A stretch of 64,000 nucleotides of DNA from Desulfarculia bacterium (lineage in GTDB: Bacteria > Desulfobacterota > Desulfarculia > Adiutricales > JAGVGV01): assembly GCA_963662445.1 (NCBI GenBank), contig OY759590.1:3520249-3584248 (forward strand), given 5' to 3'. A program made the translations under genes and the position numbers. Positions 8,472-24,466 of the stretch are shown here, piece after piece. Numbering within the stretch: the stretch's first letter is position 1; every line of letters begins with the position of its first letter. Under the pieces are notes generated by a model. That model made no database searches. It saw nothing but the letters and a program-made list of their open reading frames with translations, and was not told the origin of the DNA.

Positions 8472-9266
8472 TTACCTCCTTATACCGGCCAGGAGTTTTC
8501 TTTCCACCCGGTCGATGACGACGCCGATCACGGCGCCTGCGATGCCCACGCTAACCATGCCCAACACAACCATGTCAGGCAAGGCGAGCCGCCGGCCCAT
8601 GGTGATAAGGAAACCCAGACCCTGGTCAGCCGCCAAAAGTTCCGCGCCGACCAGATTGACCCAGCAATAGGCCAAGGCTATCTGAAGCGCACCGAAGACC
8701 ATGGGCAGAGACGAGGGAACACAGACCTTGGTGAATATCTGCCAGTTAGTCGCGCCGTAAGTCTTGGCCATCTGAATGAAAGTCGGGTTGGTCATTTTCA
8801 CGCCCACGTAAGCATTGATTACGCAGGGAACAATGCCAGCGATCCAGATGATGAAAATCTTTCCGGGTATACCAATTCCGAACCAGAAAATGGTCAATGG
8901 AATCCAGGCAATGGGGGGAATTGGCCGAATCATTTCAAATATAGGTCTGGTCAAGCCTCTGACGATCTTGAACCATCCCATGAACAGTCCCAAAGGCAGT
9001 CCGACCAGCAGAGCCAGCAGGTATCCGGTGAAAGCCTCCTGGACGCTGACCCAGGCGTGCTGAGCCAGCACGGCCCCGTCGGGATTCGGGTCTGTCAATT
9101 TCACGATAAATAGTTTTACCACCTGAGATGGGGCTGCCAGCATGGTGCTCGGAACAATTCCCGAATCCACCAGGAACTCCCAAATTCCGAAAAACGCCAC
9201 GACACTCAATATGGGCAGTATCTTCAAGCTCAGGGGCGTTGTTCTTTTTACTTCCTCGTACGCCAT
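8472..9266 (-). CDS. ABC transporter permease (NitT/TauT family)
   Basis: Paralogous to 7585..8466 ('LVGAELLAADQGLGFLI'). It starts 5 nt upstream of that gene on the same strand. Confidence 0.9.
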   Translation of the reverse strand: MAYEEVKRTTPLSLKILPILSVVAFFGIWEFLVDSGIVPSTMLAAPSQVVKLFIVKLTDPNPDGAVLAQHAWVSVQEAFTGYLLALLVGLPLGLFMGWFKIVRGLTRPIFEMIRPIPPIAWIPLTIFWFGIGIPGKIFIIWIAGIVPCVINAYVGVKMTNPTFIQMAKTYGATNWQIFTKVCVPSSLPMVFGALQIALAYCWVNLVGAELLAADQGLGFLITMGRRLALPDMVVLGMVSVGIAGAVIGVVIDRVERKLLAGIRR

Positions 9267-9358
9267 CTAACCTCTCCCGCCGATTGGTTAATGTTCTCGG
9301 GGCCATTCCCGGCATCACGGCCAGTCCACCGCCCCTCATCCAAAGCTGATATTTTTTT

Positions 9359-9386
9359 GTGACCGGGGCTCACAAGCCCCGGTCAC
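9359..9386 (-). other. Strong intergenic stem-loop between the binding-protein gene and the permease gene
   Basis: GTGACCGGGGC-TCACAA-GCCCCGGTCAC is a perfect 11-bp stem. A second imperfect hairpin lies at about 9405..9460. There is no U-tract on the transcribed (minus) strand, so this looks like an mRNA-stability or attenuation element rather than a terminator. Confidence 0.5.
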
Positions 9387-9493
9387 TTTAGGTTCACTTG
9401 GGTCAGGTCTGTGCCGCCCTGCCCTGTTCCCTTCAGGGAGCAGAGGCAGGACGGCCACAATTCAAAGCGTGAACCAGTTCAAAACGTCGTCAA

Positions 9494-10570
9494 TTACTTC
9501 CAGGAAGGAACTTCACCGACCATCTTGAGATACTTGTCGGTGACGTAACCGGAAGCGTTAACCTTCTTAAGCTCGTCAGCGGTCAGTTTGCCCTGGCCGG
9601 AGAAGAACTCGGCGATAAGGCGCTGCCAACGGGCGGCAGTGCTCTCACCCTTGGACGCGTCGAACAGTTCAAGCTGTTCCGGCAGAGTCCAGACGGGGTG
9701 CTTGTCGATGTCTTTCTTGGCCATGGCGTCGGTCAATTCCATACCGGCCCATTCCTGATAGAACTTCTGGTACAGTTTGACCAAACGTTCGCTGCTGCCC
9801 TCTTCCCGCAGCATGTTCACGCCGCGCAGGTAGATGCGCAGGAACTTGGCAACGGTCTCGGGATTTTCGTTACAGAATTTTTCGTCGCCAACCATGGCGA
9901 TGGTCAGAGCCGCGCCACAGTCCATGGGATCGCCGGCCTTGACCCAGCCTTTGTCTTCGGCAGTGTAGCTGTAAGGAGCCCAGATACAAGCAACGTCGCC
10001 GACGCCGGACTCAAAAGCGGCCATAATGGAAGACTGGTCCATGTGTTTCACAACCACGTCGGCGTCTTTCAGGCCCAGAACCTTGAGCCAGAGAGACATG
10101 GCGTAGTGAACGGAAGACACGGTGGTGACCAGGATGGTTTTCCCTTTGACCAGCTCGGGGGAGCCGAGAACATTCGGGAAATCTTTGTTCCAGCCCTTGA
10201 CCTTGGCGATGGGGCTGTCGGGACGGACAAATACGGTGTTGGCGATTGATTCGTTGTTGCCCTGAGCAATCATCTGGGCGTTGAAACGCAGAGCGCCCAT
10301 GGTCATAGGCACGCCGCCGGTGGCGCCGAGGACCCACTGACGGGCCGGCAGAGCTTCCAACTGGGCCATACCGGAGTCAAAATACAGCAACTCCATGTCC
10401 AGGCCTTCCTGCTTGTCCCAACCCTGCATTTTGGCGTACCAGGGCATGAAAGTTTCATGCTCGGGCATCCAGCAGGTGGGCAATTTCTCAACTGCCATGG
10501 CCGGGCCGAAACTGATCAGCGCCAAAGCGATAGCCAATACGATAACAGTAAAAAACTTAGCCCTCTTCAT
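9494..10570 (-). CDS. ABC transporter substrate-binding protein (NMT1/TauA-like)
   Basis: Signal peptide 'MKRAKFFTVIVLAIALALISFGPAMA'. AAGGAG lies 8 nt before ATG 10570. The gene sits inside the ABC operon. The ORF track extends to 10630. Confidence 0.85.
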   Translation of the reverse strand: MKRAKFFTVIVLAIALALISFGPAMAVEKLPTCWMPEHETFMPWYAKMQGWDKQEGLDMELLYFDSGMAQLEALPARQWVLGATGGVPMTMGALRFNAQMIAQGNNESIANTVFVRPDSPIAKVKGWNKDFPNVLGSPELVKGKTILVTTVSSVHYAMSLWLKVLGLKDADVVVKHMDQSSIMAAFESGVGDVACIWAPYSYTAEDKGWVKAGDPMDCGAALTIAMVGDEKFCNENPETVAKFLRIYLRGVNMLREEGSSERLVKLYQKFYQEWAGMELTDAMAKKDIDKHPVWTLPEQLELFDASKGESTAARWQRLIAEFFSGQGKLTADELKKVNASGYVTDKYLKMVGEVPSWK

Positions 10571-10750
10571 CCTTGTAGCTCCTTTTTTGGATAATGGTTC
10601 ATAAACAAACAACGCTGCTTTTACTACCAACAGGCGATCTCATCGCCTTGGGAAAAAACATAATCGCCGCCTGAACACCTCCTTCGAAATCTGCCATCAA
10701 TTAACTACAAACCACATCGGACCAATTACGCGAGAGCGGAAGATTCTATA

Positions 10751-11503
10751 CTACCACCATCTGATGAGTTCAGTGACTTGTTTACGAATCTCCACGAATT
10801 TAGGATCGATCAGATTTCTGGGCCGGGGCAGGTCCACCACCACCTCGGCTTTGATGTTTGTGGGTTTGTTGCTAAGAACAAGTATTCTCTCGGCGACGTA
10901 AACAGCTTCCTCAATATTGTGCGTGACAAACAGAACAGTACTGTTGAGCTCTTTCCAGAGGCGAACCAGTTCGTCTTCCAGGTAGTAGCGGAGTTTGACG
11001 TCCAACTGCCCGTATGGTTCATCCATGAGCAACAGGTCGGGATTGACGGCGAAAGCCCGGGCCACGGCGATACGCTGAACCATACTGGCCGAAACCTGGT
11101 TTGGGTAAAGCGTCTGGGTGCTGGTCAGGCCGACGAGCTTGAGGATGTTCTCAAGCTTTGCGTCGATTTCTTCCTTGGGCCACCCCTTGACCTCCATGCC
11201 GAAGGCCACGTTTTCCCGGACCGTCCGCCAGGGCAGACAAGTGGGCTCTTGAAATACGAAGGAAATATTGTGTTTCTTGGGATCGGCGACCTCACCGTCT
11301 ATAAAGATGTCGCCTTCGGACGTCGGCATCAATTTGGACAGACAGTTCAGGAAGGTGGTCTTGCCACACCCGGTCGGGCCGACGATGGCCAGGAATTCAC
11401 CTTTCTTGACCGTAAAATTGATTTTGTCCAGCACCACGAGGTCGCCAAACCTCTTGGTCAAGTCCTTAACCTCGATTTTGTCTCTTCTACCTGAATCGCC
11501 CAC
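10751..11503 (-). CDS. ABC transporter ATP-binding protein with degenerate signature motif
   Basis: Walker A 'GPTGCGKTT' and Walker B 'LLLMDEP' are intact. The signature position reads 'VSASMVQR' instead of LSGGxxQR. GTG start preceded by GGAGTG. Confidence 0.9.
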   Translation of the reverse strand: MGDSGRRDKIEVKDLTKRFGDLVVLDKINFTVKKGEFLAIVGPTGCGKTTFLNCLSKLMPTSEGDIFIDGEVADPKKHNISFVFQEPTCLPWRTVRENVAFGMEVKGWPKEEIDAKLENILKLVGLTSTQTLYPNQVSASMVQRIAVARAFAVNPDLLLMDEPYGQLDVKLRYYLEDELVRLWKELNSTVLFVTHNIEEAVYVAERILVLSNKPTNIKAEVVVDLPRPRNLIDPKFVEIRKQVTELIRWW

Positions 11504-11788
11504 TGTTCACTCCATAATTTTACTTAGGTGCATCCCCACGCTAAAGCAGCGGTCGCACCTTTTTTGGCAAAATGTGTTTGTTGATTATTTGATGGAAAGC
11601 AACAGACTGATCTGAGCTTGAGGGGTTTAAGCAGCGTTTGTCTGAACAATAAAAAGAATGGGAACATAGGAACAAATTTTCCGGACCGCGACACAATGGC
11701 TGTCGCGGACTTGGGCGGCCCTTTGCGGACTCTGGACCCAAAGCCCATGGAGGGCTATGTTTAACACGTTCCCGCATAGATGTTATAT

Positions 11789-11817
11789 CTGATACATTAC
11801 ACATCTGAATCTGTCAA
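11789..11817 (-). promoter_or_regulatory. Candidate sigma-70 promoter of the ABC operon (long 5' leader)
   Basis: The minus strand reads TTGACA, 17 nt, TATCAG. It lies about 285 nt upstream of GTG 11503. It shares the 10-mer ATGTATCAGA with the candidate promoter at 23718..23748. Confidence 0.35.
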
Positions 11818-12047
11818 GTGCAAAATCCGGGGTTCACTCCCCAAACATCTAACACCCTGTTTATTATCTCTATTTTCATGTCACCATAATTACACTTTGC
11901 CCAAAGCCAACCCTGCCAAAAGATGTTCAGTGCCTTCAATACTGCTTCCCCGGCCGCCAAGGCCCGCCAGCCCCGGCAAAACCTCAAACAACCAGCCAGA
12001 GAGTGCGGCGGCCAGTCGTGATAAGCGCAACTGGCCGCCGGAAAACA

Positions 12048-12524
12048 TCAACTTTCGAAAAGCAACAAAACCGAGCAGGGAGAATTGTGAACCACGTAGT
12101 TGCTCACACTGCCCAATATACAATCGGCCAGGGAACCACGGGTAGTCCGGCCTATTGCGATGAGGTCCGCCTTGGTCTGCTTGGCCACTTCGCAAATACG
12201 TTCTCCCGGATTGCCCATTTCCACCATGATCTGGACTTCCAGTCCCTTGTCCATGGCGGTTTTGGCCATGCTCTCCAGCCAGGCCTTGCGGTGGGCTATT
12301 TCCACTTCCTGGCGATGGGCCTGGGTTGAAAAAGCATCTTTTGATTCCAACTCTCCTACGGTGCCGACCCTGTTCTCCATCTCGGCGACAGTCGCCATCT
12401 TGAAACAGTTTACCATCACCAAACCCGCGCCGTCCTTTACCGCCAAATCAACCGCCTGCCGGAACAGCGGGTTTTTGCTTTTGGTTTCACTGTCCAACGC
12501 GACAACTATCTTCTCAAACTTCAT
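12048..12524 (-). CDS. Universal stress protein (UspA family)
   Basis: 'MKFEKIVVALDSE...' and the C-terminal 'IAIGRTTRGSLADCILGSVSNYVVHNSPCSVLL' Usp ATP-binding motif. GGGAGG lies 9 nt before ATG 12524. Confidence 0.8.
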   Translation of the reverse strand: MKFEKIVVALDSETKSKNPLFRQAVDLAVKDGAGLVMVNCFKMATVAEMENRVGTVGELESKDAFSTQAHRQEVEIAHRKAWLESMAKTAMDKGLEVQIMVEMGNPGERICEVAKQTKADLIAIGRTTRGSLADCILGSVSNYVVHNSPCSVLLLFES

Positions 12525-12637
12525 CAGACTCATCCTCCCTTGGAATATATTCATCACATGTTCCGGCGGGCACCGCCATCGCCGGATTTACCGACTTTAC
12601 ACAGCCTGCGGCCTCAAAAAGCCGCAAGCGATTTGCG

Positions 12638-13684
12638 TTACTCCGTGGCCCTGACCAGATAAGCCGCATTCACACCCTTCAAAAAGACATCGCGAGGCGG
12701 AGCGGATTTTATAGCACCCGCCTGAACCAGGAAATCCGCCGTCTCCTTTAGAAGAGTATACAGGCCAAAGTTCCAATATACACCCCCCAGGTGCTTGCCG
12801 GCCGACTGTTCCTTGCCCGAAACAACCATAACCTTCTTCATCTGACGGGCTGCTTCTTCCACCGACATCCCCAACTGACGGGATATGGCCTGGGCAGTTT
12901 CGTCGGGCTTGTCCCGCCAGTATTGAACCGCCCTGTCCAAGCTCTTGAGATAATCGACAACAACTCCAGGATACTTCTCTCCGAATTCCTTTCGGAGCAC
13001 GCAGATGTCTCCGGTCGGAAAGCCGCGCTCTGTAAGCTGGCGGCTGGTCAGCACCACACTGCCCCCGGAATCAAGCATTTTGGTCAGAGTAGGCTCCCAT
13101 ATGAAACCGGCGTCAATCTCGCCCTTCTGCCAGGCGGCCAGCATTGTTCTGGGCTCGAGATAGAGTATGTTCATTTCAGCCGGATTCATATGTTCCAGCC
13201 GTAACGCCACCATCAGGTGGTAATGAGTTGTCGAAGCGAAGGGAACGGCCACGGTCTTGCCGATGAGATCCTGGACCGAATTTATCCCTGAGGACTGCCT
13301 GGCCAGCAGTGCTTCATTATCCGCGATAATGTCGTGAATCCAGATGGCCTCGATGGGAAATCCCTGGGCGATGCCGGCCGCGCACGGACTTGTGCCTACC
13401 AGGCCTATGTCAACGTTGCCCGAGGCCATGACCTGGGCCACATGCATGCCGGAATCGAATTCTATCCACTTGATGGGAATACCCAAGGCGTCTTCAGCCC
13501 AGCCCTGGTCTTTGAGCAGAATTTCCGGAGTTGGAAAACCTTGATAACCTATTACCAGCTGCTTTGGTTTAGGCTCAGCCAGGCTTTCCGGGCAAAGGAG
13601 AAAAAAAGCCAGTGTTACGAAGGCCAAAGTCAACACCAGCAGGCCAACAAAACGTCTTAAAGGTCTCATGCCACCCCTCCACAT
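12638..13684 (-). CDS. tauA: Taurine/aliphatic-sulfonate ABC transporter substrate-binding protein (TauA-like)
   Basis: Signal/TM segment present. Colinear with my recollection of E. coli TauA: 'WIEFDSGMHVAQVMASGNVDIGLVGTSP', 'LIGKTVAVPFASTTHYHLMVAL', 'AWQKGEIDAGFIWEP'. Confidence 0.8.
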   Translation of the reverse strand: MWRGGMRPLRRFVGLLVLTLAFVTLAFFLLCPESLAEPKPKQLVIGYQGFPTPEILLKDQGWAEDALGIPIKWIEFDSGMHVAQVMASGNVDIGLVGTSPCAAGIAQGFPIEAIWIHDIIADNEALLARQSSGINSVQDLIGKTVAVPFASTTHYHLMVALRLEHMNPAEMNILYLEPRTMLAAWQKGEIDAGFIWEPTLTKMLDSGGSVVLTSRQLTERGFPTGDICVLRKEFGEKYPGVVVDYLKSLDRAVQYWRDKPDETAQAISRQLGMSVEEAARQMKKVMVVSGKEQSAGKHLGGVYWNFGLYTLLKETADFLVQAGAIKSAPPRDVFLKGVNAAYLVRATE

Positions 13685-13745
13685 ATCCGCGTCACTTGAC
13701 GCAATTTTCTGGCTATGGTGGTCAAGACGGCCTTAGGTGGCTGGC

Positions 13746-13774
13746 GGCGTCCGGTCCATTCAGGACCGGACGTC
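13746..13774 (-). other. Intergenic 12-bp hairpin downstream of the aldehyde dehydrogenase gene
   Basis: The plus strand reads GGCGTCCGGTCC-ATTCA-GGACCGGACGTC. The arms are related to those of the hairpin at 15384..15408. Confidence 0.5.
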
Positions 13775-13793
13775 ACCCGCATTTTCTTCAGTT

Positions 13794-15353
13794 CTAGCTG
13801 GCTACGCAGCTTCTAACCGCTTGAGGCTTTGTTTCCTTTTTGGCAGTTTTCTGCCCCGATCCGCCGGAGAAAATTCCGGTCGGCGGGTGGAACCGAACTG
13901 TCGCTACCTTGTTCTGAGTAAAGAAGTCAATGCCGTCTTTACCCTGGACCTTGTCGGTGCCCAGGTGCGAATCCTTGATGCCGCCGAAAGGCAGGTACGG
14001 ATGCGGCGCGCAGATGCCCACATTCACTCCCACCATGCCCACGTTGGCTTCACTGATGAAATGCTCCGTGTAATACTGGTTCTGGGTGAAGATACAAGCA
14101 CCATTGCCGAAATTCTGGGCCTTGATAAGGTTCAGGGCGTCATCAATGTCCTGTATTTTCATGACCGAAACAACCGGCCCGAATATTTCCTCTTTGGCAA
14201 TGGTCCGGCAGGGCGTCACTTCGGCAAAAATCGTGGGCCCGACATAGTAGCCGTTCTTGCAGTCTTCCTTGACCTTGGGATTACGGCCGTCGAGAACCAG
14301 CCTGGAGCCTTCGGCAATACCGATTTCAATGTAACGTTCGATCTTGCTCTTGGCGTCGGCCGAAATCACGGGTCCCATATATACATCCGGGTCCATGGCG
14401 CTGCCGACCTTGACGTTCTTGGACGCCTCGACCATCTTGGCCAGGATTTCGTCGTAAACCTCCGGCACAATGGCCACGATGGAGCCGGCCAGGCAACGCT
14501 GACCCGCTGAACCGTAGCAGGAGTTCAGGAAGTTATCTATAAAGACGTCATGGTCGGCGTCTTCCATGACCACCAGCATGTTCTTGGCTCCGCCCAGAAG
14601 CATGCTTCTCTTGCCGCCGCGTCCACAGGCTTCGGCCATCTTCTTGGCCGTCGGAGTAGACCCGACCAGGCAGACGCCGGACATTTTGGGACTTTCGTAC
14701 CAGGTTCCGGGAACCGACCTGTTGCCGTGGATTATATTGATAACGCCTTTGGGCAGGCCGACATCGTTGAATATATCGCCCATCTTCTGCATGAAAAGAG
14801 GCGACTGAGTCGAAGGCTTATAGATGAAGGTGTTGCCTACGCCTATGGCGAAAGGAATGAACCAGCCGAAGACCAGAGCGGGAAAGTTGAAAGGCGCAAC
14901 TCCGCCGAAAACACCCAAGGGCTGCTTGACCACGCGGCCGTTGATGCCGTTGGCGATGCCCTCCAGGGTTTCACCCTGGATCAGGGTCGGAATACCACAA
15001 GCGGTCTCCAGAATCTGGATGACGCGCTGAACTTCGCCCCTGGCTTCGCTTATGTGCTTGGCCTGATCGATGGCAATGGAAAAGGCCAGTTCCTCGGTCT
15101 TGTCGATCATGGCCTGCCGAATGGCGAACAGGTAGCCGACCCTCTTGTTTACAGAGAGTCTCCGCCAGGAATCATAGGCGGCATGGGCCGAATCAATGCA
15201 GGCCTGAGAGGTCTCATCCGAAGACAGGGGGACTTCCCCTATCTGCTCCCCCGTGGAGGGATTGAAAAGAGGCACGTATTTGACGCCTGTTTCCTCAACC
15301 CACTGTCCATCGATAAAATTTTTGATCCTGTAAAATTCCCCGGTCGTACTCAT
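13794..15353 (-). CDS. Aldehyde dehydrogenase, CoA-acylating methylmalonate/malonate-semialdehyde dehydrogenase (MmsA/IolA) type
   Basis: 519 aa. ALDH fold ('FNFPA', 'GSTPTAKKM', catalytic Cys in 'GQRCLAGS', 'EEIFGPV'). The GQRC(M/L)A context is typical of the MmsA family. It has a ~30-aa Lys/Gly-rich C-terminal tail. Confidence 0.8.
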   Translation of the reverse strand: MSTTGEFYRIKNFIDGQWVEETGVKYVPLFNPSTGEQIGEVPLSSDETSQACIDSAHAAYDSWRRLSVNKRVGYLFAIRQAMIDKTEELAFSIAIDQAKHISEARGEVQRVIQILETACGIPTLIQGETLEGIANGINGRVVKQPLGVFGGVAPFNFPALVFGWFIPFAIGVGNTFIYKPSTQSPLFMQKMGDIFNDVGLPKGVINIIHGNRSVPGTWYESPKMSGVCLVGSTPTAKKMAEACGRGGKRSMLLGGAKNMLVVMEDADHDVFIDNFLNSCYGSAGQRCLAGSIVAIVPEVYDEILAKMVEASKNVKVGSAMDPDVYMGPVISADAKSKIERYIEIGIAEGSRLVLDGRNPKVKEDCKNGYYVGPTIFAEVTPCRTIAKEEIFGPVVSVMKIQDIDDALNLIKAQNFGNGACIFTQNQYYTEHFISEANVGMVGVNVGICAPHPYLPFGGIKDSHLGTDKVQGKDGIDFFTQNKVATVRFHPPTGIFSGGSGQKTAKKETKPQAVRSCVAS

Positions 15354-15383
15354 ATACCACTCCTAAACGAAAACTTGCTAGGA

Positions 15384-15408
15384 GGTCCGGACGCGAGGCG
15401 TCCGGACC
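15384..15408 (-). other. Intergenic perfect 11-bp hairpin between the aminotransferase and aldehyde dehydrogenase genes
   Basis: GGTCCGGACGC-GAG-GCGTCCGGACC. Confidence 0.5.
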
Positions 15409-15441
15409 ATACCTCTTCAAAAACAGCCGTCTTGTGCCCGG

Positions 15442-16809
15442 CTACTTGGCGTACTTGTCGGTTACTTCGAGGGCCTTGTCCAGAATGGCGATACCCTCGT
15501 CTATCTCACTCTTGGTCACGATCAGCGCAGGGGCCAGCGAGATGCAGTTGCTCGGGTTGCCGGCCATGGCCATCATGCCCAGTTCGCCCAGTTTGGCGGC
15601 CAGTTCCAGTTTCGGGTTCACACCACGAACGATCTTGTCCTTAACAGTGATGATCGGTTCCCTGGTCTTCTTGTCCTTGACCAGTTCCACACCGATAAAC
15701 AGGCCCTTGCCGCGGACATCGCCCACACTGGGATGCTTGTCTTTCAGTTCCAATGTCTTGTCCAGAAGGTAGGCACCCATCTTGGCCGCGTTCTCGATCA
15801 GGTTGTCTTCCTGATAGATCTGGATGGCCCGGATGGCGGCGGCGCAGCAGAGGGCGTGACCCGCAAAAGTGGCGCCGTGGCTGAAATAATGCTCCTTGAA
15901 GAAGTCGCCGATGTGCTTGCGCACGATGGTGGCACCCATGGGCAGATAAGAACCGGTGATGCCCTTGGCCATGGTCATGATGTCAGGCACCACATTCCAA
16001 TGTTCCATAGCAAACCATTTGCCGGTACGACCGAAGCCGGTCATGACTTCATCGGCGATCAGCAGGATGCCGTATTTGTCCAGGACTTTCTTCAGTTCGG
16101 GGAAGTAATCATCCGGGGGAACGATAACGCCGTTCGCGCCGGTGATAGGCTCACAGATCATGGCCGCAATCATATCGCTGCCGCCTTCCAGTTCCAGAAC
16201 CTCGTCCACATGCTTGACGCACTGCATGTTGCAGGTGGGGTATTCCAGGCCGAAGGAGCAGCGGTAGCAATAAGGCTGATGCACTTTGACGATTTCCGCG
16301 CCGCCGGGGACCTGAGCCCACTGGCGAGGGTCACCGATGGAAAGGCTCATGGGAGCGGTGGTGGCGCCGTGGTAAGTGCGGTAACGGGCGACGATCTTCC
16401 GTTTGCCGGTGAACTGGTGAGCGATTTTGATGGCCGTTTCGTTGGCTTCAGCGCCGCCCAGATGGACAAAGCTGCGGGACAGATCGCCCGGAGTTACCTC
16501 GGACAGCATCTTGACCAGCATGGAACGGACCTTGGTGGAATTCGAAGGCGCGAAGGAACAAAGCTCGTTGGCCTGCTTGCAGATAGCGTCAACTATGCGC
16601 TGGTCCTGGTGTCCCAGGTTGTGGCTGACAAAACAGGAGCTGAAGTCCAGGCGCTCACGTCCGTCTTCGGTGGTGAAGCGCATTCCCTTGGCCGACAGCA
16701 CACGAAGAGGCGCTTTGGCCGGCTGATAGGACCAGGAAGCAAAATTGTTTTCAACTTCGTAGCGGTCCAGGTCTTCCTTGGAAGCCGGAATGTTTTTAAG
16801 ATCGATCAT
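15442..16809 (-). CDS. Class-III (omega) aminotransferase, taurine:2-oxoacid / beta-alanine:pyruvate aminotransferase-like
   Basis: The product is 455 aa from ATG 16809, with GGAGG 8 nt upstream. PLP-enzyme motifs 'LIADEVMTGFGRTGKWFA' and 'DIMTMAKGITGSY' (Lys). Located between the xsc-like and ALDH genes. The ORF track extends to 16995. Confidence 0.85.
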   Translation of the reverse strand: MIDLKNIPASKEDLDRYEVENNFASWSYQPAKAPLRVLSAKGMRFTTEDGRERLDFSSCFVSHNLGHQDQRIVDAICKQANELCSFAPSNSTKVRSMLVKMLSEVTPGDLSRSFVHLGGAEANETAIKIAHQFTGKRKIVARYRTYHGATTAPMSLSIGDPRQWAQVPGGAEIVKVHQPYCYRCSFGLEYPTCNMQCVKHVDEVLELEGGSDMIAAMICEPITGANGVIVPPDDYFPELKKVLDKYGILLIADEVMTGFGRTGKWFAMEHWNVVPDIMTMAKGITGSYLPMGATIVRKHIGDFFKEHYFSHGATFAGHALCCAAAIRAIQIYQEDNLIENAAKMGAYLLDKTLELKDKHPSVGDVRGKGLFIGVELVKDKKTREPIITVKDKIVRGVNPKLELAAKLGELGMMAMAGNPSNCISLAPALIVTKSEIDEGIAILDKALEVTDKYAK

Positions 16810-17096
16810 TGAAAAAACCTCCATATGATAATTCATCGTTGAAGTCTTGGGCCGATAAAGGCCGGCAGCAAAGCTGCATTTCTCATTAAACCCCCGATTA
16901 CCATCTGGCAGGCATGGCCACGGAGAAGATGCCCGGCGAGTGCCGGGTGTGCGGTCTCTTCGCCTCTTCCTTCGGCCATACTTCCCAGATAACAACCATC
17001 TCTCTTCCGCCCGCTTTCCTTCTTTTGAAGTCGCCGCATGGCGAGGCCCGTTTGAGCCCCGCTATGCGGCTTTTCATATAGGCCTAACTCAAACGC

Positions 17097-18827
17097 TTAC
17101 TTGGCGTTGAGATGGGCGTACTTGGGCAGGTAGCGGACGGGCATTTTGAGCGCGTCGCGCCGGAAGGGCTCGGCCAGAACTTCCTCGCCGCCCTGGATGA
17201 TGGCGTTGATGACGCAAGGCCTGTTGGAGGCGATGGCGTCCTTGACCACATCCTGAACGTCGCGGTAGTCTTCCACGCGGTAACCCTTGGCGCCCATGTC
17301 CTCGGCCAGCTTGGCGTAGTCGGGATTGCTGAGCAGGTTTGCACCGACGAAGCGGTTGTCGTAGTAGTCGATCTGGTTCTTCTTCTCAGCGCCCCACTCG
17401 TAGTTGCAGGCAACCACGGCGATGACCGGGATGTTCTCGCGAACAGCGGTCATGACTTCGGCGATGCCGCTGATGCCGTAAGCGCCGTCACCCTGGAAGG
17501 CGAAGACGGGGGCATCGGGATTGCCCAGCTTGGCGCCCATGGCCGCGCCGTAAGCGAAGCCGCAGTTGCCCCAGCTCAGAGCCGAGATGTGCTGGCGGGC
17601 GCCCGCGAACTTGAAGTAAGCGTTGCACATGGACGAGTTGTTGCCGATGTCCGTGGCCATAATCGAATTGTCGGGCATGGCCAGGCTCAGCTCGCGCAGG
17701 AAGCGGCGGGGATGCATCAGCTTGTTGGTGGAGGTGCTCCACTGCTCAAGCTCGTCGCCCCAGGTCTTCTTCTCTTTCGCCACGTCGGCCATACGGTCTT
17801 TGTTCACTTCCATGGAGGGCTTCAGGGCCTTGATGGCCTTGAACAGCTCGACGGAGAACTCTTTCACGTCGGCCATGGCCACAACGTCGGCACGCTTGGC
17901 CAAGCCAAGGACCTTACCGTTGCTGTCGCACTGGATCAGTTTCGCCTGGGCCGGCCAGTAGGTCATGTCGTACTGGGGCAGGGTCCCGAAAGGTCCAAGG
18001 CGGGAGCCCAGGGCCAGAACAACGTCGGCCTTGGCGATGGTGCGCATGGCCGCCTTGGAACCGCAGTAGCCGATCGGGCCGCAACCCAGCGGATGGCTCT
18101 GCGGGAAGGTGTCGTTGTGCAGGTAGCTGTTGCAGACAGGAGCGGTCAGGTATTCGGCCAGAGCCTTCACTTCGGCCAGAGCCTCGGCCTGGGAAACGCC
18201 GCCGCCGGACAGAATCACGGGGTACTTGGCGTTGACCAGCAACTTGGCCGCTTCTTCGATGGACTTACGCGGACCGGCGCCCATGGTCACCACGGGGGTC
18301 TCGTAAATCTCGTCCTCGCAGACACCGTAGAAGTAGTCGCGGGGAATGTTCAACTGGGTCGGACCGTTTTCCAGTTTGGCCATGTAGAAAGCACGACGGG
18401 CCAACTCGGCCATACGCTCGGGACGGTTCACGCGCACCTGGTACACAGTCTGCTTCTCGAACATGGGCATCTGGTCCAATTCCTGGAAACCGCCCGTGCC
18501 GATACCCATGGTGCCCGTCTCAGGGGTGAGAGCCACCACCGGGGAATGAGCCCAGTAAGCCGCAACCATAGCCGAAACAAAGTTCGCAGCGCCGGGGCCG
18601 TTCTGAGCTATACAGCACTGGGGCTTGCCGGTCACACGGGCCAGACCGTCGGCCGCGTGGCAAGCAGCCTGCTCGTGGGCCACGGGAATGAAACGAATGC
18701 CCGCATCCGGGAACAGATCCAGAGCGTCCATGTAAGCCGAACCAACGATACCGAAGACGTTCTTTACGCCCTCGGCTACCATCGTTTCGACCAGAGCCTC
18801 GCTAGGGGTCATCTTCTGTTTAGCCAT
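17097..18827 (-). CDS. xsc: ThDP-dependent sulfoacetaldehyde acetyltransferase (Xsc)-like enzyme
   Basis: 576 aa from ATG 18827, with AAGGAG 7 nt upstream. Xsc-type motifs as I recall them: 'DLFPDAGIRF', 'AQNGPGAANFVSAMVAAYWAHSP', 'GGFQELDQMPMFE', 'LNIPRDY'. ThDP motif 'GDGAYG...NYEWG'. Confidence 0.75.
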   Translation of the reverse strand: MAKQKMTPSEALVETMVAEGVKNVFGIVGSAYMDALDLFPDAGIRFIPVAHEQAACHAADGLARVTGKPQCCIAQNGPGAANFVSAMVAAYWAHSPVVALTPETGTMGIGTGGFQELDQMPMFEKQTVYQVRVNRPERMAELARRAFYMAKLENGPTQLNIPRDYFYGVCEDEIYETPVVTMGAGPRKSIEEAAKLLVNAKYPVILSGGGVSQAEALAEVKALAEYLTAPVCNSYLHNDTFPQSHPLGCGPIGYCGSKAAMRTIAKADVVLALGSRLGPFGTLPQYDMTYWPAQAKLIQCDSNGKVLGLAKRADVVAMADVKEFSVELFKAIKALKPSMEVNKDRMADVAKEKKTWGDELEQWSTSTNKLMHPRRFLRELSLAMPDNSIMATDIGNNSSMCNAYFKFAGARQHISALSWGNCGFAYGAAMGAKLGNPDAPVFAFQGDGAYGISGIAEVMTAVRENIPVIAVVACNYEWGAEKKNQIDYYDNRFVGANLLSNPDYAKLAEDMGAKGYRVEDYRDVQDVVKDAIASNRPCVINAIIQGGEEVLAEPFRRDALKMPVRYLPKYAHLNAK

Positions 18828-18963
18828 TTTGTAACTCCTTCCATCTGACTTCGCGCCCCCGAAGGGGTGTGTTTTTGATTTTCCGGAAACAATTTCCCCT
18901 TGTCGGGAAATCACAGCTTTTGTTCGAGGCCGCCAGCGGAAGGCCGGCGGCCTTAATTTATGA

Positions 18964-20295
18964 TTAGACCACGCCCTGGTCGAGCATGGCGTTGACTACT
19001 TTGATGAAGCCGGCGCAGTTGGCGCCTCTCATGTAGTTTCCGGGATCGCCAGCCTGTTCGGCCGCGTCCAGACAGGTCTTGTGAATGCCCTTCATGATCT
19101 GCAGCAGGCGGGCGTCAACTTCATCTCTCGTCCAGTTGAAACGCATGCTGTTCTGAGACATTTCCAGACCGGAAACCGACACGCCGCCAGCGTTGGCCGC
19201 CTTGCCGGGAGCATACATAATCCCATGCTCCAGGAAGGTGTCGATGGCTTCGGGGGTACAAGGCATGTTTGCCGCTTCGCAGACGCAGATACAGCCGTTG
19301 TCCACCAGAGCCTTGGCAGACTTGCCATCAAGCTCGTTCTCCATGGCCGTCGGGATGGCGATGTCGCACTTGACTTCCCAAGGCCGCTTGCCCGGAATCC
19401 ACTCGCAACCGAACTTGTCCGCGTATTCCTTGGCGGACTTGCGGTAGACGGTCCACAGGGTGGACAGGTACTCAAGCTTCTCGCCCTTGATGCCATCCGG
19501 GTCGTACACGCAGCCATACTCGTCGCCGATGGTGACAACCTTGCCGCCCAGCTCGTTGGCCTTTTCCACGACAAAGGTTCCGACGTTGCCGTAGCCGGAA
19601 ATGGCAATGGTCTTGCCTTCCAGGGTTATGCCCTTGGTGGCCAGCATTTCGGCCAGAAAATAGACCACGCCGTAGCCGGTGGCCTCGGGACGGACCAGAC
19701 TGCCGCCCCAGTTCAGACCCTTGCCCGTCAGAACGCCCGTAAACTCATTACGGATTTTCTTGTACTGACCGAACATGAAGCCGATTTCCCGAGCGCCGAC
19801 ACCAAGGTCGCCAGCAGGAACGTCGGTGTTGGGACCGATGTACTTGCAGAGTTCGGTCATGAAAGCCTGGCAGAAACGCATGACTTCCCTGTCCGACTTG
19901 CCCTTGGGATCGAAATCGGAACCGCCTTTACCGCCGCCCATGGGCAGGGTGGTCAGGGCGTTCTTGAAGGTCTGCTCGAAACCCAGAAACTTCAGGGTGC
20001 TCAAAGTGACCGAGGGATGGAAGCGAATCCCGCCCTTGTAAGGTCCTATTGCGCTGTTGAACTGCACACGGTAAGCGCGGTTAACCCGCACCTCGCCCTG
20101 GTCGTCTACCCAAGGCACCCTGAAAGTGATGGTTCTTTCAGGTTCAACTAGTCTCTCCAGAATTCTTGATTGCCGGTAAATGGGATTCCGGTCCAGAATA
20201 GGCTGAACCGAACCGAGAACTTCACCGACAGCCTGCTGGAATTCCTTCTCATGAGGATCCCGCGCCTTTACGATGTCCATAATGTCCAAGGACAT
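18964..20295 (-). CDS. gdhA: Glutamate dehydrogenase
   Basis: 443 aa. Hallmark motifs 'GPYKGGIRFHP' and 'LPMGGGKGGSDFDPKGKS'. Confidence 0.95.
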   Translation of the reverse strand: MSLDIMDIVKARDPHEKEFQQAVGEVLGSVQPILDRNPIYRQSRILERLVEPERTITFRVPWVDDQGEVRVNRAYRVQFNSAIGPYKGGIRFHPSVTLSTLKFLGFEQTFKNALTTLPMGGGKGGSDFDPKGKSDREVMRFCQAFMTELCKYIGPNTDVPAGDLGVGAREIGFMFGQYKKIRNEFTGVLTGKGLNWGGSLVRPEATGYGVVYFLAEMLATKGITLEGKTIAISGYGNVGTFVVEKANELGGKVVTIGDEYGCVYDPDGIKGEKLEYLSTLWTVYRKSAKEYADKFGCEWIPGKRPWEVKCDIAIPTAMENELDGKSAKALVDNGCICVCEAANMPCTPEAIDTFLEHGIMYAPGKAANAGGVSVSGLEMSQNSMRFNWTRDEVDARLLQIMKGIHKTCLDAAEQAGDPGNYMRGANCAGFIKVVNAMLDQGVV

Positions 20296-20391
20296 AATTA
20301 CTTCTCCTTAGAGAACTGTTTTGTATTTACCCGCTTATATCCGGCCCGGTCTCAAAGTACCGGACCATACCCACCAGGTCCTTACTTCCTG

Positions 20392-23385
20392 TCACTCGCC
20401 TTTTGACCGCAACCACCCGTTCGCGGCTGTAATCGCTCCAAGAGACTTCCGCCCATCGACTTTCAGATTGAATGGTTTTTCCAGGGCCACATGGGCCACA
20501 TGACGGGTTTCCTCGGCCAAAGGCAATGAGGTCAGCCAATCCCAGTCCAGAATGTCTTCACCATTTTCAGTCACCGTAAAATAATTGATCCCCAACGTGG
20601 TGACATTGTGGAAAAAATGCGAACCCTGGGACGGCTCGACTTTTGCTTCCGGCATGGCGGCCTCCACCACGGCTCCAACTCCGTGTATATCCGCCCACTT
20701 TACCGGTATTCCCAACCAACGGTCGGCCGACCCCCACCTGCCGGGACCAATCAGCAGATAGGGTCGATCAGCTTCAAACAATTTCGCGTTCAACAAACTT
20801 ATTTCCCTGGCGATATCAACTGTACGGCTCTTGTCGAAAACATCGGGCTTTACGTAAATAATATCGAGCATATCGTCTCGGGAAGTATTGCCAAGAGCGC
20901 TGTGAGAAACGCAGAAGGACTGCTTCAATTCTTCGTCAGATATATAGACCTCAATCAACTCAGCCCTGGCGCTCATCGGCCTGAGTTGAAGAAATGCAAA
21001 TTCCGGAATCTGGTCGGCTTGCTGAGGCATATGCACCGAAAACTCCAGTTCCACCGGACAGGCCATTCCGTCCTGGGCTGTCCGCAGAACGTCCTGAAGT
21101 ATTTCCGCCAGCGGAAAGCTCTTGTATTTCAGCACTTGGGCAAAAGTGACGATCTTATGCCCCGGCACGAAGCCGTCGTCACGGATACGCTTTTCCGCGG
21201 GAATATAGGTGCTGGTCAGGAGTCTGACCGGATGTTCGTCCAGAGCGTCCACTACCTGCCTTTTTTCCAGCGTACAATCCTCGCTGAAGCTGACCAGGCG
21301 GCACTCCTGACTCATGTTTAGGGCGTAAAAAGACTGCTGTGAATTCTTCAGCATATCTTCCACCACGGAAAACTGGGGCAGCAATTGCGGATATTTGGGC
21401 GAAAAACGAAGGGTTTGCTCACCTTCCATGACCATGCGTCCCAGGCCCAGAGCAATGGTGGCTATGCCCTCTTCAGGCTTCATGCGGTCAAAAGGATAGT
21501 AATTGTGAGACTGCGCCACGCCGGATATGGCCGGATAAAAGGAATCGCCGAACCGTTCCCCGATCAACTGCTGGACTATGACGGCCATCTTCTCGTCTTC
21601 GGTCCGCAAGCCGACCCGTTTCCCGAAGGCCTTGGGGCTACGGAAATAGGTAGAAGCGTAAACCAGCTTAATGGCCGTGACCAGATCGTCCAGGCGCTCA
21701 TCCAGGCTGGACGAGTTGTTGGGAATCATATAAGTGCTGTACAGTCCGGCATAGGCTCTGAACTTCGCGTCTTCCAGCAACCCTGAAGAACGGATGGCCA
21801 GGGGATAGTTTACCTGTTCAAGGTAAGCCCTGAGATTGTCCCTGACCCAGATGGGAAAGTCGGCCTTCAGAAAAACATCGGCTATTTCTTCGTCCGACAA
21901 ATCCACTTTGGCGAAAGACCGCAGATCGTTGGCGTCGATGAAGGAGTTGAAAGCCTCTGTTGTCAGCACCAGGGTCTTGGGAACAATAATGTTGACCGAA
22001 GCAAATTTCTTATGCAGTTCGGGGTTACGCTGCAACAGAGTAGCCACAAAAGCCAGCCCTCTGGCTTTCCCTCCCAGTGAACCCTGACCTATCTTGAGAA
22101 AATCGGTTTCCGGATCGAATTCCCTTGCGTCAAAATCGGCCACGACCCCCTTCTGACGCCATTTGCGGCGGGCTTTCAGATTTCCGATGAGGAAATCCCT
22201 CATGCTGTCCACCTGCCCGGAAAAATCGGCGTCGCTCAAGGGCCGCATGATGGAAGCCAGCAGCGTCTCGGTTCTGGCGAAGAGCCACCGGGAAAAATCG
22301 TTCCGGCTCCAATGATAATAGAAAGATTCGTTGGGGATGCCGGGCAGTATCTGTTCCAGCGCCCGGACATTGGACACGCGGGCCACTTCGCTGCCGTTGG
22401 GGAGGCGGAAAACAAAATCTCCGAACCCGAGATGATTGATAAAAAAGGCCTTTATCTCGGTCAGCAGTGAAGGAGAATTCTTGTCGCTGAACAGGGCCGG
22501 GATAGCGTCCGCCTTTTCACGATTGGCCGGCTCGGAGCTGGTCAGAAGGATCGGCAGGTCCGGAACTTCGCGCTTGGCCTTGGTCAGAAACTCAACACCG
22601 GCGTTCTCGTCCAGTTCGCCTCCGTGGGGAAAGCGGACGTCGGAGATTATGCCCAGCAGATAGGGTTTATATCTTTCGAACAGCTCAAGGGCCTGCTCGT
22701 AATTCTCAGCCACCAGTATCTTGGGGCGGGCCCGCATGGTCAGGAGACGGTGCTCTTCATTGAGCCCCTCTTCCATAAGGGCCTGGGTCTGAGTGACCAC
22801 TTGACGATAAAGTATGGGCAATATGGCCGAACGGTAAAGGGGGGAGTCCTCAATAAGCAGAATGACCCTGACACCGGATGTTTCAGTATCATGAGTCACG
22901 TTCATTGCGTCTTCCGTACTTTTGACAATGGCCAGAAGGAGTTCGGAATCGCCGGACCAGACAAAAACACGATCAATGCCCGCATCCTGAGCCATTCGCA
23001 GACTGAAATCAGGCGGCAGGGCGTTATGCCCGAGCAGTATGACCGGAAGGTCGGGCTTTCTTTTCTTTATCTCCCGGCCAAAGGCAAAGGCATCCATGTC
23101 GGCAAGGTGCAACATGGTTATAACCATGTCAAATTTCTGCTTGTCCAAAGTTTCCAGGGCTTCCTCGGCGGAAGACACCCAGGTCAGGCGAGGGGGCTGG
23201 CTGAGGTTAAGGCCTCGATATTCGTTTATTATCCTCTCGGCAAGCCGACAGTCCTCTTCCAGGATGCAGGCGTCGTACAGGCTGGACACCAAAAGAATTT
23301 CCCTGACCTTGCGCGCCATCAGTTCATGAAAGTTCTTGAAATGAGGCCCGAAATCATCGGGAAAATTTTGTATCTCCAGAGCCAA
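20392..23385 (-). CDS. Pseudo-receiver + receiver + PEP/pyruvate-binding (PPDK_N, ATP-grasp) domain protein
   Basis: 997 aa. REC-like domain 1 has 'LLVSS' and 'VITM' where the acidic pair and the phospho-Asp are expected. Domain 2 keeps 'LLIED' and 'IISDVRFP'. The central region 'GQGSLGGKARGLAF' resembles the PpsA/PPDK N-terminal nucleotide-binding domain. I saw no phospho-His swivel motif (TSHAA). Confidence 0.8.
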   Translation of the reverse strand: MALEIQNFPDDFGPHFKNFHELMARKVREILLVSSLYDACILEEDCRLAERIINEYRGLNLSQPPRLTWVSSAEEALETLDKQKFDMVITMLHLADMDAFAFGREIKKRKPDLPVILLGHNALPPDFSLRMAQDAGIDRVFVWSGDSELLLAIVKSTEDAMNVTHDTETSGVRVILLIEDSPLYRSAILPILYRQVVTQTQALMEEGLNEEHRLLTMRARPKILVAENYEQALELFERYKPYLLGIISDVRFPHGGELDENAGVEFLTKAKREVPDLPILLTSSEPANREKADAIPALFSDKNSPSLLTEIKAFFINHLGFGDFVFRLPNGSEVARVSNVRALEQILPGIPNESFYYHWSRNDFSRWLFARTETLLASIMRPLSDADFSGQVDSMRDFLIGNLKARRKWRQKGVVADFDAREFDPETDFLKIGQGSLGGKARGLAFVATLLQRNPELHKKFASVNIIVPKTLVLTTEAFNSFIDANDLRSFAKVDLSDEEIADVFLKADFPIWVRDNLRAYLEQVNYPLAIRSSGLLEDAKFRAYAGLYSTYMIPNNSSSLDERLDDLVTAIKLVYASTYFRSPKAFGKRVGLRTEDEKMAVIVQQLIGERFGDSFYPAISGVAQSHNYYPFDRMKPEEGIATIALGLGRMVMEGEQTLRFSPKYPQLLPQFSVVEDMLKNSQQSFYALNMSQECRLVSFSEDCTLEKRQVVDALDEHPVRLLTSTYIPAEKRIRDDGFVPGHKIVTFAQVLKYKSFPLAEILQDVLRTAQDGMACPVELEFSVHMPQQADQIPEFAFLQLRPMSARAELIEVYISDEELKQSFCVSHSALGNTSRDDMLDIIYVKPDVFDKSRTVDIAREISLLNAKLFEADRPYLLIGPGRWGSADRWLGIPVKWADIHGVGAVVEAAMPEAKVEPSQGSHFFHNVTTLGINYFTVTENGEDILDWDWLTSLPLAEETRHVAHVALEKPFNLKVDGRKSLGAITAANGWLRSKGE

Positions 23386-23558
23386 GCTACCCCATCCTAC
23401 TCATGGAAGCTGAAGCAGTTGTATCCGCCGCGGCGTACAGCCCCGTGCGCCCGAGTGCAGCGGACCGAACACTCACAACTCCCCGTTGCAGTTGAATGTT
23501 GGCTAAAGATAAAATAAGCCGATATTGTGTGACCGTCCCGGAATATCCCGCCATAGTT

Positions 23559-23574
23559 TGCAAGGCCTCTGCCA
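23559..23574 (-). promoter_or_regulatory. Candidate sigma-54 (-24/-12) promoter upstream of the receiver-PPDK_N gene
   Basis: The minus strand reads TGGCAG-AGGCC-TTGCA, against the consensus TGGCAC-N5-TTGCW. It lies about 175 nt upstream of ATG 23385. Confidence 0.45.
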
Positions 23575-23717
23575 ATCTCCTTTGGCGTTTTAGGAATCCG
23601 TAACCCACAATATAACTGGTTCGCCCTGTCCCGACCGGCCTGGGCCGGACCGATCTGACCCTATTCACAAGCATGCGGCCTCTGCCTTTTCCCGTGGAAA
23701 ACGCCGGCTCACGATGT

Positions 23718-23748
23718 CTGATACATCAGATTTCAGTGTCGGTGTCAA
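23718..23748 (-). promoter_or_regulatory. Candidate sigma-70 promoter
   Basis: The minus strand reads TTGACA, 19 nt, TATCAG. It contains the same ATGTATCAGA 10-mer as 11789..11817. Confidence 0.3.
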
Positions 23749-24301: not shown

Positions 24302-24330
24302 TTGTCCTTGACAAACACTTGGTATACAAT
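24302..24330 (+). promoter_or_regulatory. Candidate sigma-70 promoter of the thiamine transporter operon
   Basis: TTGTCC, 17 nt, TACAAT, about 25 nt upstream of the riboswitch. Confidence 0.45.
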
Positions 24331-24351
24331 TAGTTAGATAGTGAAAATTGA

Positions 24352-24466
24352 ATAGCAGGCCTGTCGGGAGCTCGGAGTAACCGGGCTGAGAGGGACTCTT
24401 TACCATGTAGCGAGTCCGACCGTTGAACCTGATCCGGATAATGCCGGTGGAGGAAACCTGAGGCAT
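24352..24466 (+). promoter_or_regulatory. TPP (THI-box) riboswitch
   Basis: Contains the conserved THI-box elements GGGAGC...CTGAGA...ACC.TTGAACCTGATCCGGATAATGCCGGTGGAGGAA. It lies directly upstream of a thiamine-binding-protein gene and is followed by an intrinsic terminator. The boundaries are approximate. Confidence 0.9.

Follow-up and report, generated by a model that had tools for sequence, protein, structure and literature searches.

Gene content of the taurine cluster

We analyzed a 64,000-nucleotide stretch of contig OY759590.1 from the Desulfarculia bacterium assembly GCA_963662445.1 (hereafter the window, whose positions are used throughout), which carries a genuine taurine-degrading gene cluster of a Desulfobacterota-type sulfate or sulfite reducer, with a coenzyme A (CoA)-acylating aldehyde dehydrogenase (ALDH) in its midst. 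Genes were identified by Pfam and NCBIfam profile scans, and public gene calls were taken from assembly GCA_053527175.1, whose sequence is identical to the window; genes of related loci, designated by L numbers, were called by a simple longest-ORF (open reading frame) rule, and neighbors were clustered over 80 genome loci around ALDH orthologs. The core of the cluster is a set of five minus-strand genes coding for GdhA, a thiamine diphosphate (ThDP) enzyme, a class-III omega-aminotransferase, the ALDH and a TauA-like periplasmic binding protein, with a gene for a universal stress protein (Usp; 12048-12557, minus strand; Pfam PF00582, 96 bits) just downstream. The initial annotation of this DNA had recognized this arrangement correctly, and its mention of short spacers is a fair description, the five genes being separated by 80-287 bp with no overlaps. 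The boundaries of the operon were, however, drawn too narrowly. A gene for a protein with response-regulator receiver and PPDK_N domains (RR-PPDK_N) lies upstream, and a five-gene ABC importer and a GntR/FCD-family regulator lie downstream, and the unit spans from about position 23726, with an operator, a 95-aa ORF and the RR-PPDK_N gene, to the GntR gene at 5825.

The ThDP enzyme (17097-18827, minus strand; 576 aa in the public gene calls) possesses all three domains of its class (PF02776, PF00205 and PF02775) and passes both curated Xsc-specific cutoffs, with 846 bits against 620 for NF005713 and 746 against 676 for TIGR03457, which marks a true Xsc and bears out the earlier assignment made from motifs. 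Its best acetolactate synthase model attains 330 bits and the glyoxylate carboligase model lies outside its 25 best matches; the profile scores (330 versus 846 and 746 bits) thus rule out an acetolactate synthase or a carboligase. It belongs to a second, divergent clade, here termed XscW, whose identity to the canonical Xsc in most related clusters is about 41%. The NF005713 score of this commoner form is 1027 bits, and it shares 74-82% identity with the Xsc in 80 marine-metagenome contigs. XscW homologs (78-84% identity) are widespread in Desulfobacterota, and NCBI records call them Xsc. While we know of no characterized member of this clade, it is predicted to cleave sulfoacetaldehyde with phosphate, giving acetyl phosphate and sulfite. 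An acetate kinase gene adjoins XscW in L084 and L085, and AckA is found beside related clusters too, which fits acetyl phosphate as the product. In these two large Desulfobacterota contigs (L084 7403-12015; L085 7362-11941) XscW is located between the short acetate kinase and a class-V aminotransferase, with no Toa, GdhA or ALDH nearby; the class-V enzyme of L084 is SerC-like and is hence ruled out as a taurine aminotransferase. No AckA gene was detected in the window, and its annotated ORFs, a set that is not exhaustive, include neither pta nor dsr nor a sulfite exporter gene. This agrees with the earlier remark that pta, ack and an exporter are missing nearby, and the sulfite-respiring host then put forward as speculation fits the relatives of the ALDH, which come from sulfate-reducer lineages.

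Xsc adjoins a Toa-type aminotransferase in the window and in five other contigs. The window version (15442-16809, minus strand; 455 aa; Pfam Aminotran_3) is tentatively assigned to the Toa subfamily, with PRK06062 as its top NCBIfam model at 453.6 bits, below the cutoff of 472, and with the next family at 345 bits, a gap of about 108 bits. The Toa of Bifidobacterium kashiwanohense (BkToa; PDB 6jix), which at 510 bits lies over the same cutoff, is its best solved relative (E 2.2e-88, 39.9% identity), and JGI annotation labels its homologs taurine--2-oxoglutarate transaminase. The Tpa-like enzymes of the common clusters, to which it is 35-38% identical, fall in PRK07678. Those Tpa-type clusters carry alanine dehydrogenase (Ald in 37 loci, Tpa in 40), whereas GdhA is present in every Toa-type operon with an intact upstream region, namely the window, L078, L166 and L167. 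The window GdhA (18964-20295, minus strand; 443 aa) is of the NADP type (NF006929, 720 bits versus a cutoff of 536) and has orthologs of 64-65% identity at the same position in these three contigs. This family placement of the aminotransferase, together with the GdhA context, supports a probable 2-oxoglutarate/glutamate shuttle, as had been surmised from gdhA in the initial annotation.

The gene order RR-PPDK_N, GdhA, Xsc, aminotransferase, ALDH, (TauA-like), Usp, ABC importer, GntR recurs in the genome contig L078 and the metagenome contigs L166, L167 and L169, and L168 holds a shorter form (Xsc, aminotransferase, ALDH, GntR). The components are 56-86% identical in protein sequence across L078 and L166-L169, with the exception of Usp (39-40%), and the repetition of the order indicates that the grouping is not a product of chance. 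The RR-PPDK_N protein (20392-23385, minus strand; 997 aa), which combines PF00072 (response-regulator receiver) with PF01326 (PPDK_N, a PEP-utilizing, ATP-grasp domain), has orthologs of 61-63% identity in the same position in L078, L166 and L167, and further homologs occur near the ALDH in L013, L017, L049 and L069. It is encoded by the conserved first large gene of the operon and is presumed to be a regulatory or kinase component and may be a phosphotransfer-based regulator. The 95-aa ORF (23387-23674, minus strand; from the ORF list) separates this gene from the operator in the window. In L078, L166 and L167, by contrast, just 62-78 bp separate the RR-PPDK_N gene from the operator upstream of it, which makes the ORF, or an insertion, specific to the genome of the window; the ORF may not be a real gene.

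The importer (6742-11503, minus strand; Pfam and NCBIfam) is comprised of an ATPase (10751-11503), an NMT1-type binding protein (9494-10630), two permeases (8472-9266 and 7585-8466) and a second ATPase (6742-7515), all on the minus strand. It is found near the ALDH in 22 of the 80 genome loci, with 54-86% protein identity. On the TauABC models the TauA-like protein (12638-13684, minus strand; NMT1 and OpuAC Pfam domains) scores 225 bits, under the cutoff of 304 for TIGR01729, the second binding protein 39 bits and the ATPase 188 bits against 357 for the TauB model. The TauA-like protein, which has orthologs (52-60% identity) in L004, L166 and L169 only, is probably an additional binding protein of this importer. 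Usp keeps its position in L078, L166, L167 and L169 as well as in canonical-type loci. The GntR/FCD-family regulator (5825-6484, minus strand; Pfam GntR and FCD domains) closes the unit. In L166 the aminotransferase and the ALDH are separated by an additional gene (11447-13867), which codes for a dimethylglycine-dehydrogenase-like protein with DAO, FAO_M and GCV_T domains; such a gene is also partially present at window positions 1-1472 (plus strand) and lies beside an ABC importer in L052 and L068 (cluster c68). This recurrent protein may demethylate N-methylated taurine or another methylated amine.

A conserved dehydrogenase and a shared operator

Orthologs of the ALDH (70-83% identity) are abundant in Desulfobacterota, including the taurine fermenter Desulforhopalus singaporensis, and are also found in Firmicute sulfate reducers, namely Desulfocucumis palustris and one metagenome-assembled Peptococcaceae genome. 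Three layouts are the commonest around them: the first runs Xsc, Tpa, Ald, GntR, TRAP transporter, ALDH, GntR; the second GntR, Xsc, ALDH, Usp, ABC importer, Tpa, Ald; and in the third a beta-hydroxyacid dehydrogenase, an aldehyde:ferredoxin oxidoreductase and GabT are divergent from the ALDH and a TRAP transporter, which continue on to Ald, Tpa and Xsc. In the 34 loci whose sequence reaches 8 kb or more to either side of the ALDH, Xsc occurs within 10 kb of it in 23, a Tpa/Toa aminotransferase in 26 and a TRAP or ABC transporter in 27. In the reverse test, with 80 metagenome loci seeded with canonical Xsc, the ALDH was recovered in just two, both with neighbors closely matching the Desulfobacterota clusters.

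A repeat search of the window detected the same palindrome at 23714-23726 and at 11785-11797 (no strand assigned), each behind a CTTGACA box. Site 1, with the palindrome TCTGAT-GT-ATCAGA inside ATGTCTGATACAT, and site 2, ATATCTGATACAT, which lies upstream of the ABC importer genes, are both exact matches to the operator motif AT[AG]TCTGATA[CT]AT (core TCTGAT-N2-ATCAGA). With at most one mismatch, this motif has 136 sites in the 1.42 Mb of 87 ALDH loci, against 1-9 in Markov-1 random sequence, a control that is not a matched intergenic background. The sites lie upstream of the ALDH (37), Xsc (31), the ABC ATPase (11), Tpa (10), GntR (9), GabT (7), the TRAP transporter (5), RR-PPDK_N (4) and Toa (2), and their spacing is fixed: for canonical Xsc the distance is in most cases about 85-105 bp, and for the ALDH a distance of about 125-140 bp is the most frequent. 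A counterpart of site 2 is seen between Usp and the ABC ATPase in L078, L166, L167 and L169. In the 80 canonical-Xsc metagenome loci the motif is present in 11 only, and, where this could be checked, these loci are similar to the Desulfobacterota clusters. The sharing of the operator by the ALDH and Xsc across loci implies that the two belong to one regulon. In the window itself no site directly precedes Xsc or the ALDH; its two sites suggest two transcription units, with site 1 as the likely start of the long one.

The GntR/FCD homolog, which is the commonest neighbor of the ALDH (53 loci) and appears to be autoregulated given the sites upstream of nine GntR genes, is the presumed binder of this operator. 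A promoter and terminator scan of 5500-24500 gave counts near the shuffle expectation and nothing of use, the sigma-54 promoter consensus had fewer matches than in shuffles, with one 1-mismatch site at 23560-23574, and Rfam recovered no regulatory RNA in the cluster, its only match being a tRNA-Sec gene elsewhere in the window.

Synteny and the shared operator hence rule out the ALDH as a chance neighbor. The description of its presence as non-canonical in the initial annotation does not hold for Desulfobacterota, in which the ALDH is a conserved, co-regulated member of Xsc clusters. These comparisons reveal a widespread Desulfobacterota taurine regulon with two modules, Xsc/Tpa/Ald and Xsc/Toa/GdhA, that have a common operator and a conserved MSDH-like ALDH (see below) of the same type.

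Sequence features and candidate substrates of the dehydrogenase

The ALDH (13794-15353, minus strand; 519 aa) displays the GQRCLA active-site motif that had been noticed earlier, and its best solved relatives are all CoA-acylating (methyl)malonate-semialdehyde dehydrogenases (MSDHs; 412-335 bits), with other ALDH families following from 229 bits; the best PDB match is 1t90, the Bacillus subtilis MSDH (E 1.9e-122). It passes the model TIGR01722 marginally, with 452.3 bits versus a cutoff of 448.5, and its 63% identical relative P0241 fails at 431.7, while typical members score 610-717. The clade is an isolated one: at 50% clustering the nearest relative is 63% identical, and the next are at most 42%. 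By sequence, the ALDH is thus a peripheral MSDH, from a distinct clade of sulfate-reducer lineages.

Within this clade Cys287, the preceding Arg286, and Arg110 are invariant, and we take the two arginines to be equivalent to the ligands of the substrate carboxylate in the B. subtilis MSDH. Leu stands in place of the general base Glu268, with LLGGAKN aligning with the (S/A)L(T/G)GAKN of MSDHs, and the absence of this base, as in MSDHs, supports CoA-dependent deacylation. The reaction of the MSDH family is the oxidative decarboxylation of malonate or methylmalonate semialdehyde to an acyl-CoA. Other features are specific to the clade. KPSTQSP is invariant in it, versus KPSER(T/D)P in all five aligned solved MSDHs and KPSMESP in P0241, and the ALDH lacks the NAD-type KPSE motif. 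Glu195, which typifies NAD-specific ALDHs, is changed to Thr, and Thr at this cofactor position is typical of NADP users. The replacement of KPSE(R) by KPSTQSP suggests use of NADP. The C-terminus is extended by 25-35 residues relative to MSDHs; in 20 of the 20 aligned clade members this end of the protein (window 13794-13895) consists of a hydrophilic linker, variable and about 12-22 residues long, and then an invariant VRSCVA. This tail is lacking in solved MSDHs and in the 40-42% relatives, and the 63% relative P0241 has GVRSCIAS. It is unusual for an ALDH to carry a conserved Cys in such a flexible tail. An AlphaFold2 model from a 20-sequence alignment, with a mean pLDDT of 64 and values below 50 in the tail, did not yield a placement of the tail.

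With the gene identities, synteny, shared operator and family-level features of the ALDH established, we infer substrates, a direction of flux and a fate of the sulfite as follows. The amine would be imported by the ABC system with its two binding proteins, and the Toa-type aminotransferase would transfer the amino group to 2-oxoglutarate, yielding sulfoacetaldehyde, with the NADP-dependent GdhA regenerating 2-oxoglutarate and releasing ammonium. Xsc would then convert sulfoacetaldehyde and phosphate to acetyl phosphate and sulfite, the latter presumably being respired by the host. The ALDH would take a second beta-anionic aldehyde produced by the same aminotransferase, the likeliest being malonate semialdehyde, to be converted to acetyl-CoA, CO2 and NAD(P)H, and the operon would then be a dual one, handling taurine and beta-alanine together. 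The whole is apparently read from two operator-bearing promoters. Our proposal is that GntR controls a regulon for the catabolism of taurine and related small omega-amines, with the ALDH acting on malonate semialdehyde from beta-alanine, and we regard it as about evenly balanced between right and wrong.

Malonate semialdehyde is ranked first on account of the known activity of the MSDH family. Further indications come from Xsc-less operons. In D. palustris (L040) a sigma-54 activator, an amino-acid permease, Ald, a Tpa-like aminotransferase and the ALDH are grouped, and in the Peptococcaceae genome (L079) an ArgE/DapE-type deacylase, a sodium:solute symporter, the ALDH, Ald, an aminotransferase and a second deacylase. 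These would constitute complete omega-amino-acid routes only if the product of the ALDH were a central metabolite, which fits the conversion of malonate semialdehyde to acetyl-CoA. Thus, of the three options put forward in the initial annotation, a malonate-semialdehyde dehydrogenase, though still a candidate activity, has become the best supported, through its family and the Xsc-less operons.

Several points weigh against this assignment. A role of the ALDH in taurine metabolism proper would more readily account for the operator that it has in common with Xsc, and the restriction of the clade to sulfate-reducer lineages of two phyla would not be predicted of a plain beta-alanine enzyme. The ALDH is at the edge of the MSDH family (452 bits versus the typical 610-717), no characterized close homolog of it was found among solved proteins, the nearest being the MSDH at 412 bits, and the Glu195 to Thr change and the C-terminal Cys tail could mark a different substrate or cofactor. 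The aminotransferase in turn shares just 40% identity with BkToa and does not reach the PRK06062 cutoff, and activity of these aminotransferases on beta-alanine and hypotaurine is assumed here from that of Tpa. The co-regulation with Xsc, the occurrence in sulfite-reducing lineages of two phyla and the clade-specific features are reasons to keep a sulfur-linked role for the ALDH in consideration.

One such role is that of an acylating sulfoacetaldehyde dehydrogenase, with a SauS-like function recruited from the MSDH lineage, that would convert part of the sulfoacetaldehyde via sulfoacetyl-CoA to sulfoacetate or, in reverse, feed sulfoacetate into Xsc. Sulfoacetaldehyde is the sulfonate analog of malonate semialdehyde and both anion-binding arginines are kept; moreover, the ALDH shares its operator with Xsc and adjoins the aminotransferase. 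In the oxidative direction the reaction would provide an incomplete oxidizer with four extra electrons per sulfite, two taurine giving acetate, sulfoacetate, H2S and two NH3. Many carriers belong to Desulfocapsaceae or Desulfobulbaceae, known as incomplete oxidizers. The change of Glu195 to Thr would suggest NADP use as in SauS (PMC10413351), but the ALDH lies outside the SauS subfamily, which belongs to the SucD/EutE-like acylating ALDH group (PMC10413351), and the SauS model NF047625 is absent from its 25 best matches of 41. The known acylating sulfo-aldehyde dehydrogenases SauS, SqwD and HpfX are each paired with a CoA ligase (PMC10413351, PMC11489063), and no AMP- or ADP-forming CoA ligase was found among the conserved neighbor families of the 80 loci or in the scans of the window. 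Moreover, SauS-like genes co-occur with the ALDH in two loci. The L018 protein (6461-7861), which has NF047625 as its top family (525.6 bits versus a cutoff of 600), is encoded directly upstream of the aminotransferase and ALDH, and its cluster-mate in L051 (321-1727) has the same position; in L018 this gene comes after a 2-oxoacid:ferredoxin oxidoreductase. The absence of NF047625 from the listed matches and the separate SauS-like gene of L018 rule out the ALDH as a SauS homolog, and the SauS-like option of the initial annotation thus fares poorly on subfamily, on the model, on the lacking conserved ligase and on the SauS-like genes alongside. As Xsc-less operons such as L040 would in addition end in a dead-end product, we consider an activity on sulfoacetaldehyde improbable, even as an independently acquired one.

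We see a comparably small chance that the ALDH serves hypotaurine, with taurine left to Xsc. Here the aldehyde made by the same aminotransferase would be sulfinoacetaldehyde, a sulfinate analog of malonate semialdehyde, and the conversion of it, or of the acetaldehyde from its decay, to acetyl-CoA with release of sulfite would be an oxidative beta-desulfination mirroring the beta-decarboxylation of MSDHs. Tpa transaminates hypotaurine, and beta-sulfinyl carbonyls lose SO2 spontaneously. This reading accommodates all contexts without an extra enzyme, both the co-regulation with Xsc and the Xsc-less operons of Firmicute sulfate reducers; it is consistent with the limitation of the clade to sulfite-reducing lineages, for which sulfite is an electron acceptor, and with the retention of MSDH-type chemistry and the Arg pair. 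L040 and L079 fit the conversion of a hypotaurine-derived aldehyde to acetyl-CoA and sulfite equally well. To our knowledge, however, no desulfinating dehydrogenase of this kind has been described, the ALDH has no direct sequence signature for sulfinate binding, and beta-alanine explains the same contexts by a known activity. It seems unlikely that the clade represents a new sulfur-releasing enzyme, a CoA-acetylating, desulfinating dehydrogenase, or has another unprecedented sulfo-aldehyde activity, of sulfite-respiring anaerobes; the C-terminal Cys tail might take part in the chemistry of the ALDH.

The weakest candidate is a C3 sulfonated aldehyde, with 3-sulfopropanal from homotaurine or 2,3-dihydroxypropane-1-sulfonate (DHPS) being converted to 3-sulfopropionyl-CoA, and we deem it very improbable: genes for the DHPS sulfolyase HpsG and its activase HpsH no more than 10 kb from the ALDH (L052 and L068), a fragment of HpsG at the contig end of L065, a histidinol-dehydrogenase-like gene near the ALDH in L048 (the family to which HpsN belongs) and a family III CoA-transferase adjoining it in L035 speak for it, but such neighbors are seen in few loci only and no conserved enzyme would desulfonate the product. 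Furthermore, the product of HpsG is hydroxyacetone and not an aldehyde (PMC13450708), and HpfX, the known dehydrogenase for 3-sulfopropanal, pairs with a CoA ligase (PMC11489063) that has no equivalent here; as hydroxyacetone is a ketone, HpsG is ruled out as the source of the ALDH substrate. In L068 (1076-4590) and L052 (744-4394) HpsG (1564 bits, NF048011) and HpsH are accompanied by the ALDH, a TRAP transporter and a sigma-54 regulator, and with the L065 fragment (19927-21540) these HpsG/HpsH loci together form an organosulfonate catabolic island.

Elsewhere in the window, a second ABC importer (25589-32950), whose permease is a two-domain fusion and whose ATPase contains a TOBE domain, is adjoined by a gene of the formylglycine-generating-enzyme (sulfatase-modifying) family (32102-32950), and this may be another organosulfur-related locus. 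The tRNA-Sec gene lies at 56736-56829 (plus strand; Rfam RF01852, 73.6 bits). A 585-aa ORF at 53776-55533 (minus strand) joins LytB/IspH and UbiA prenyltransferase domains in what looks like an unusual fusion, and a type I restriction-modification system with an HsdR-like helicase/nuclease and an HsdS specificity subunit is encoded at 59080-63473 (plus strand).

Comparison with known taurine and semialdehyde systems

The logic of the pathway is that of the known route from taurine via sulfoacetaldehyde to acetyl phosphate and sulfite, and every gene is one recognized by automated annotation. In the literature searched, four features appear to be undescribed: the Toa/GdhA/divergent-Xsc module as a conserved Desulfobacterota operon, the distinct MSDH-like ALDH that systematically accompanies either module, the operator that is shared and the RR-PPDK_N gene that leads the operon. 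The search found no publication linking taurine or Xsc with (methyl)malonate-semialdehyde dehydrogenase or with sulfate reducers. Taurine and its related osmolytes rank among the chief sources of organic sulfur and nitrogen in marine sediments, and knowledge of how sulfate reducers exploit these compounds stems mainly from a small number of gut and fermenting isolates. If the ALDH handles malonate semialdehyde, the regulon would couple the use of taurine to that of beta-alanine, and if it handles a sulfur-bearing aldehyde, it would represent a new step in anaerobic organosulfur cycling. As several cultured carriers exist, among them Desulfopila sp. IMCC35008, Desulfofustis glycolicus DSM 9705, Desulfogranum marinum DSM 2058 and Desulforhopalus singaporensis DSM 12130, the question of its substrate is directly testable.

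The canonical pathway (TauABC or TauKLM, Tpa, Ald, Xsc and Pta), as seen in Rhodobacterales, with the Bilophila-type Tpa and in Desulfonispora, follows the same logic of import, transamination, recycling of the amino acceptor and ThDP-dependent cleavage, and most relatives of the ALDH sit in just such Xsc-Tpa-Ald-transporter clusters. The window differs from it in its probable Toa-subfamily aminotransferase, recycling by an NADP-dependent GdhA, a divergent Xsc (about 41% identity) and the lack of any Pta seen, and adds the MSDH-like ALDH, Usp, the RR-PPDK_N protein and a regulator of the GntR/FCD family, TauR of Rhodobacterales being of the MocR type. With BkToa, its best solved relative, the aminotransferase has PRK06062 in common as top family, and the adjacent GdhA fits the use of 2-oxoglutarate. 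At 39.9% identity to BkToa, and below the family cutoff, the window enzyme would here feed Xsc, whereas in gut bacteria the sulfoacetaldehyde from Toa goes to a reductase and a glycyl-radical lyase.

As for the ALDH, it resembles SauS, SqwD and HpfX in being an acylating member of the ALDH superfamily encoded near Xsc or other sulfonate genes; those three act on sulfonated aldehydes. It is, however, of a different subfamily and is without the CoA-ligase partner that they have. Its closest relatives are the MSDHs MmsA, IolA, BauC and DddC (PDB 1t90, 5tjr, 4e4g and 4zz7), with which it shares the catalytic Cys, the Arg pair and the absence of Glu268. It departs from them in its peripheral scores, the KPSTQSP motif, the VRSCVA tail and its embedding in, and co-regulation with, Xsc clusters. 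In following an omega-aminotransferase it nonetheless has the setting of beta-alanine catabolism, in which bauA-bauC display the same order of aminotransferase and then dehydrogenase.

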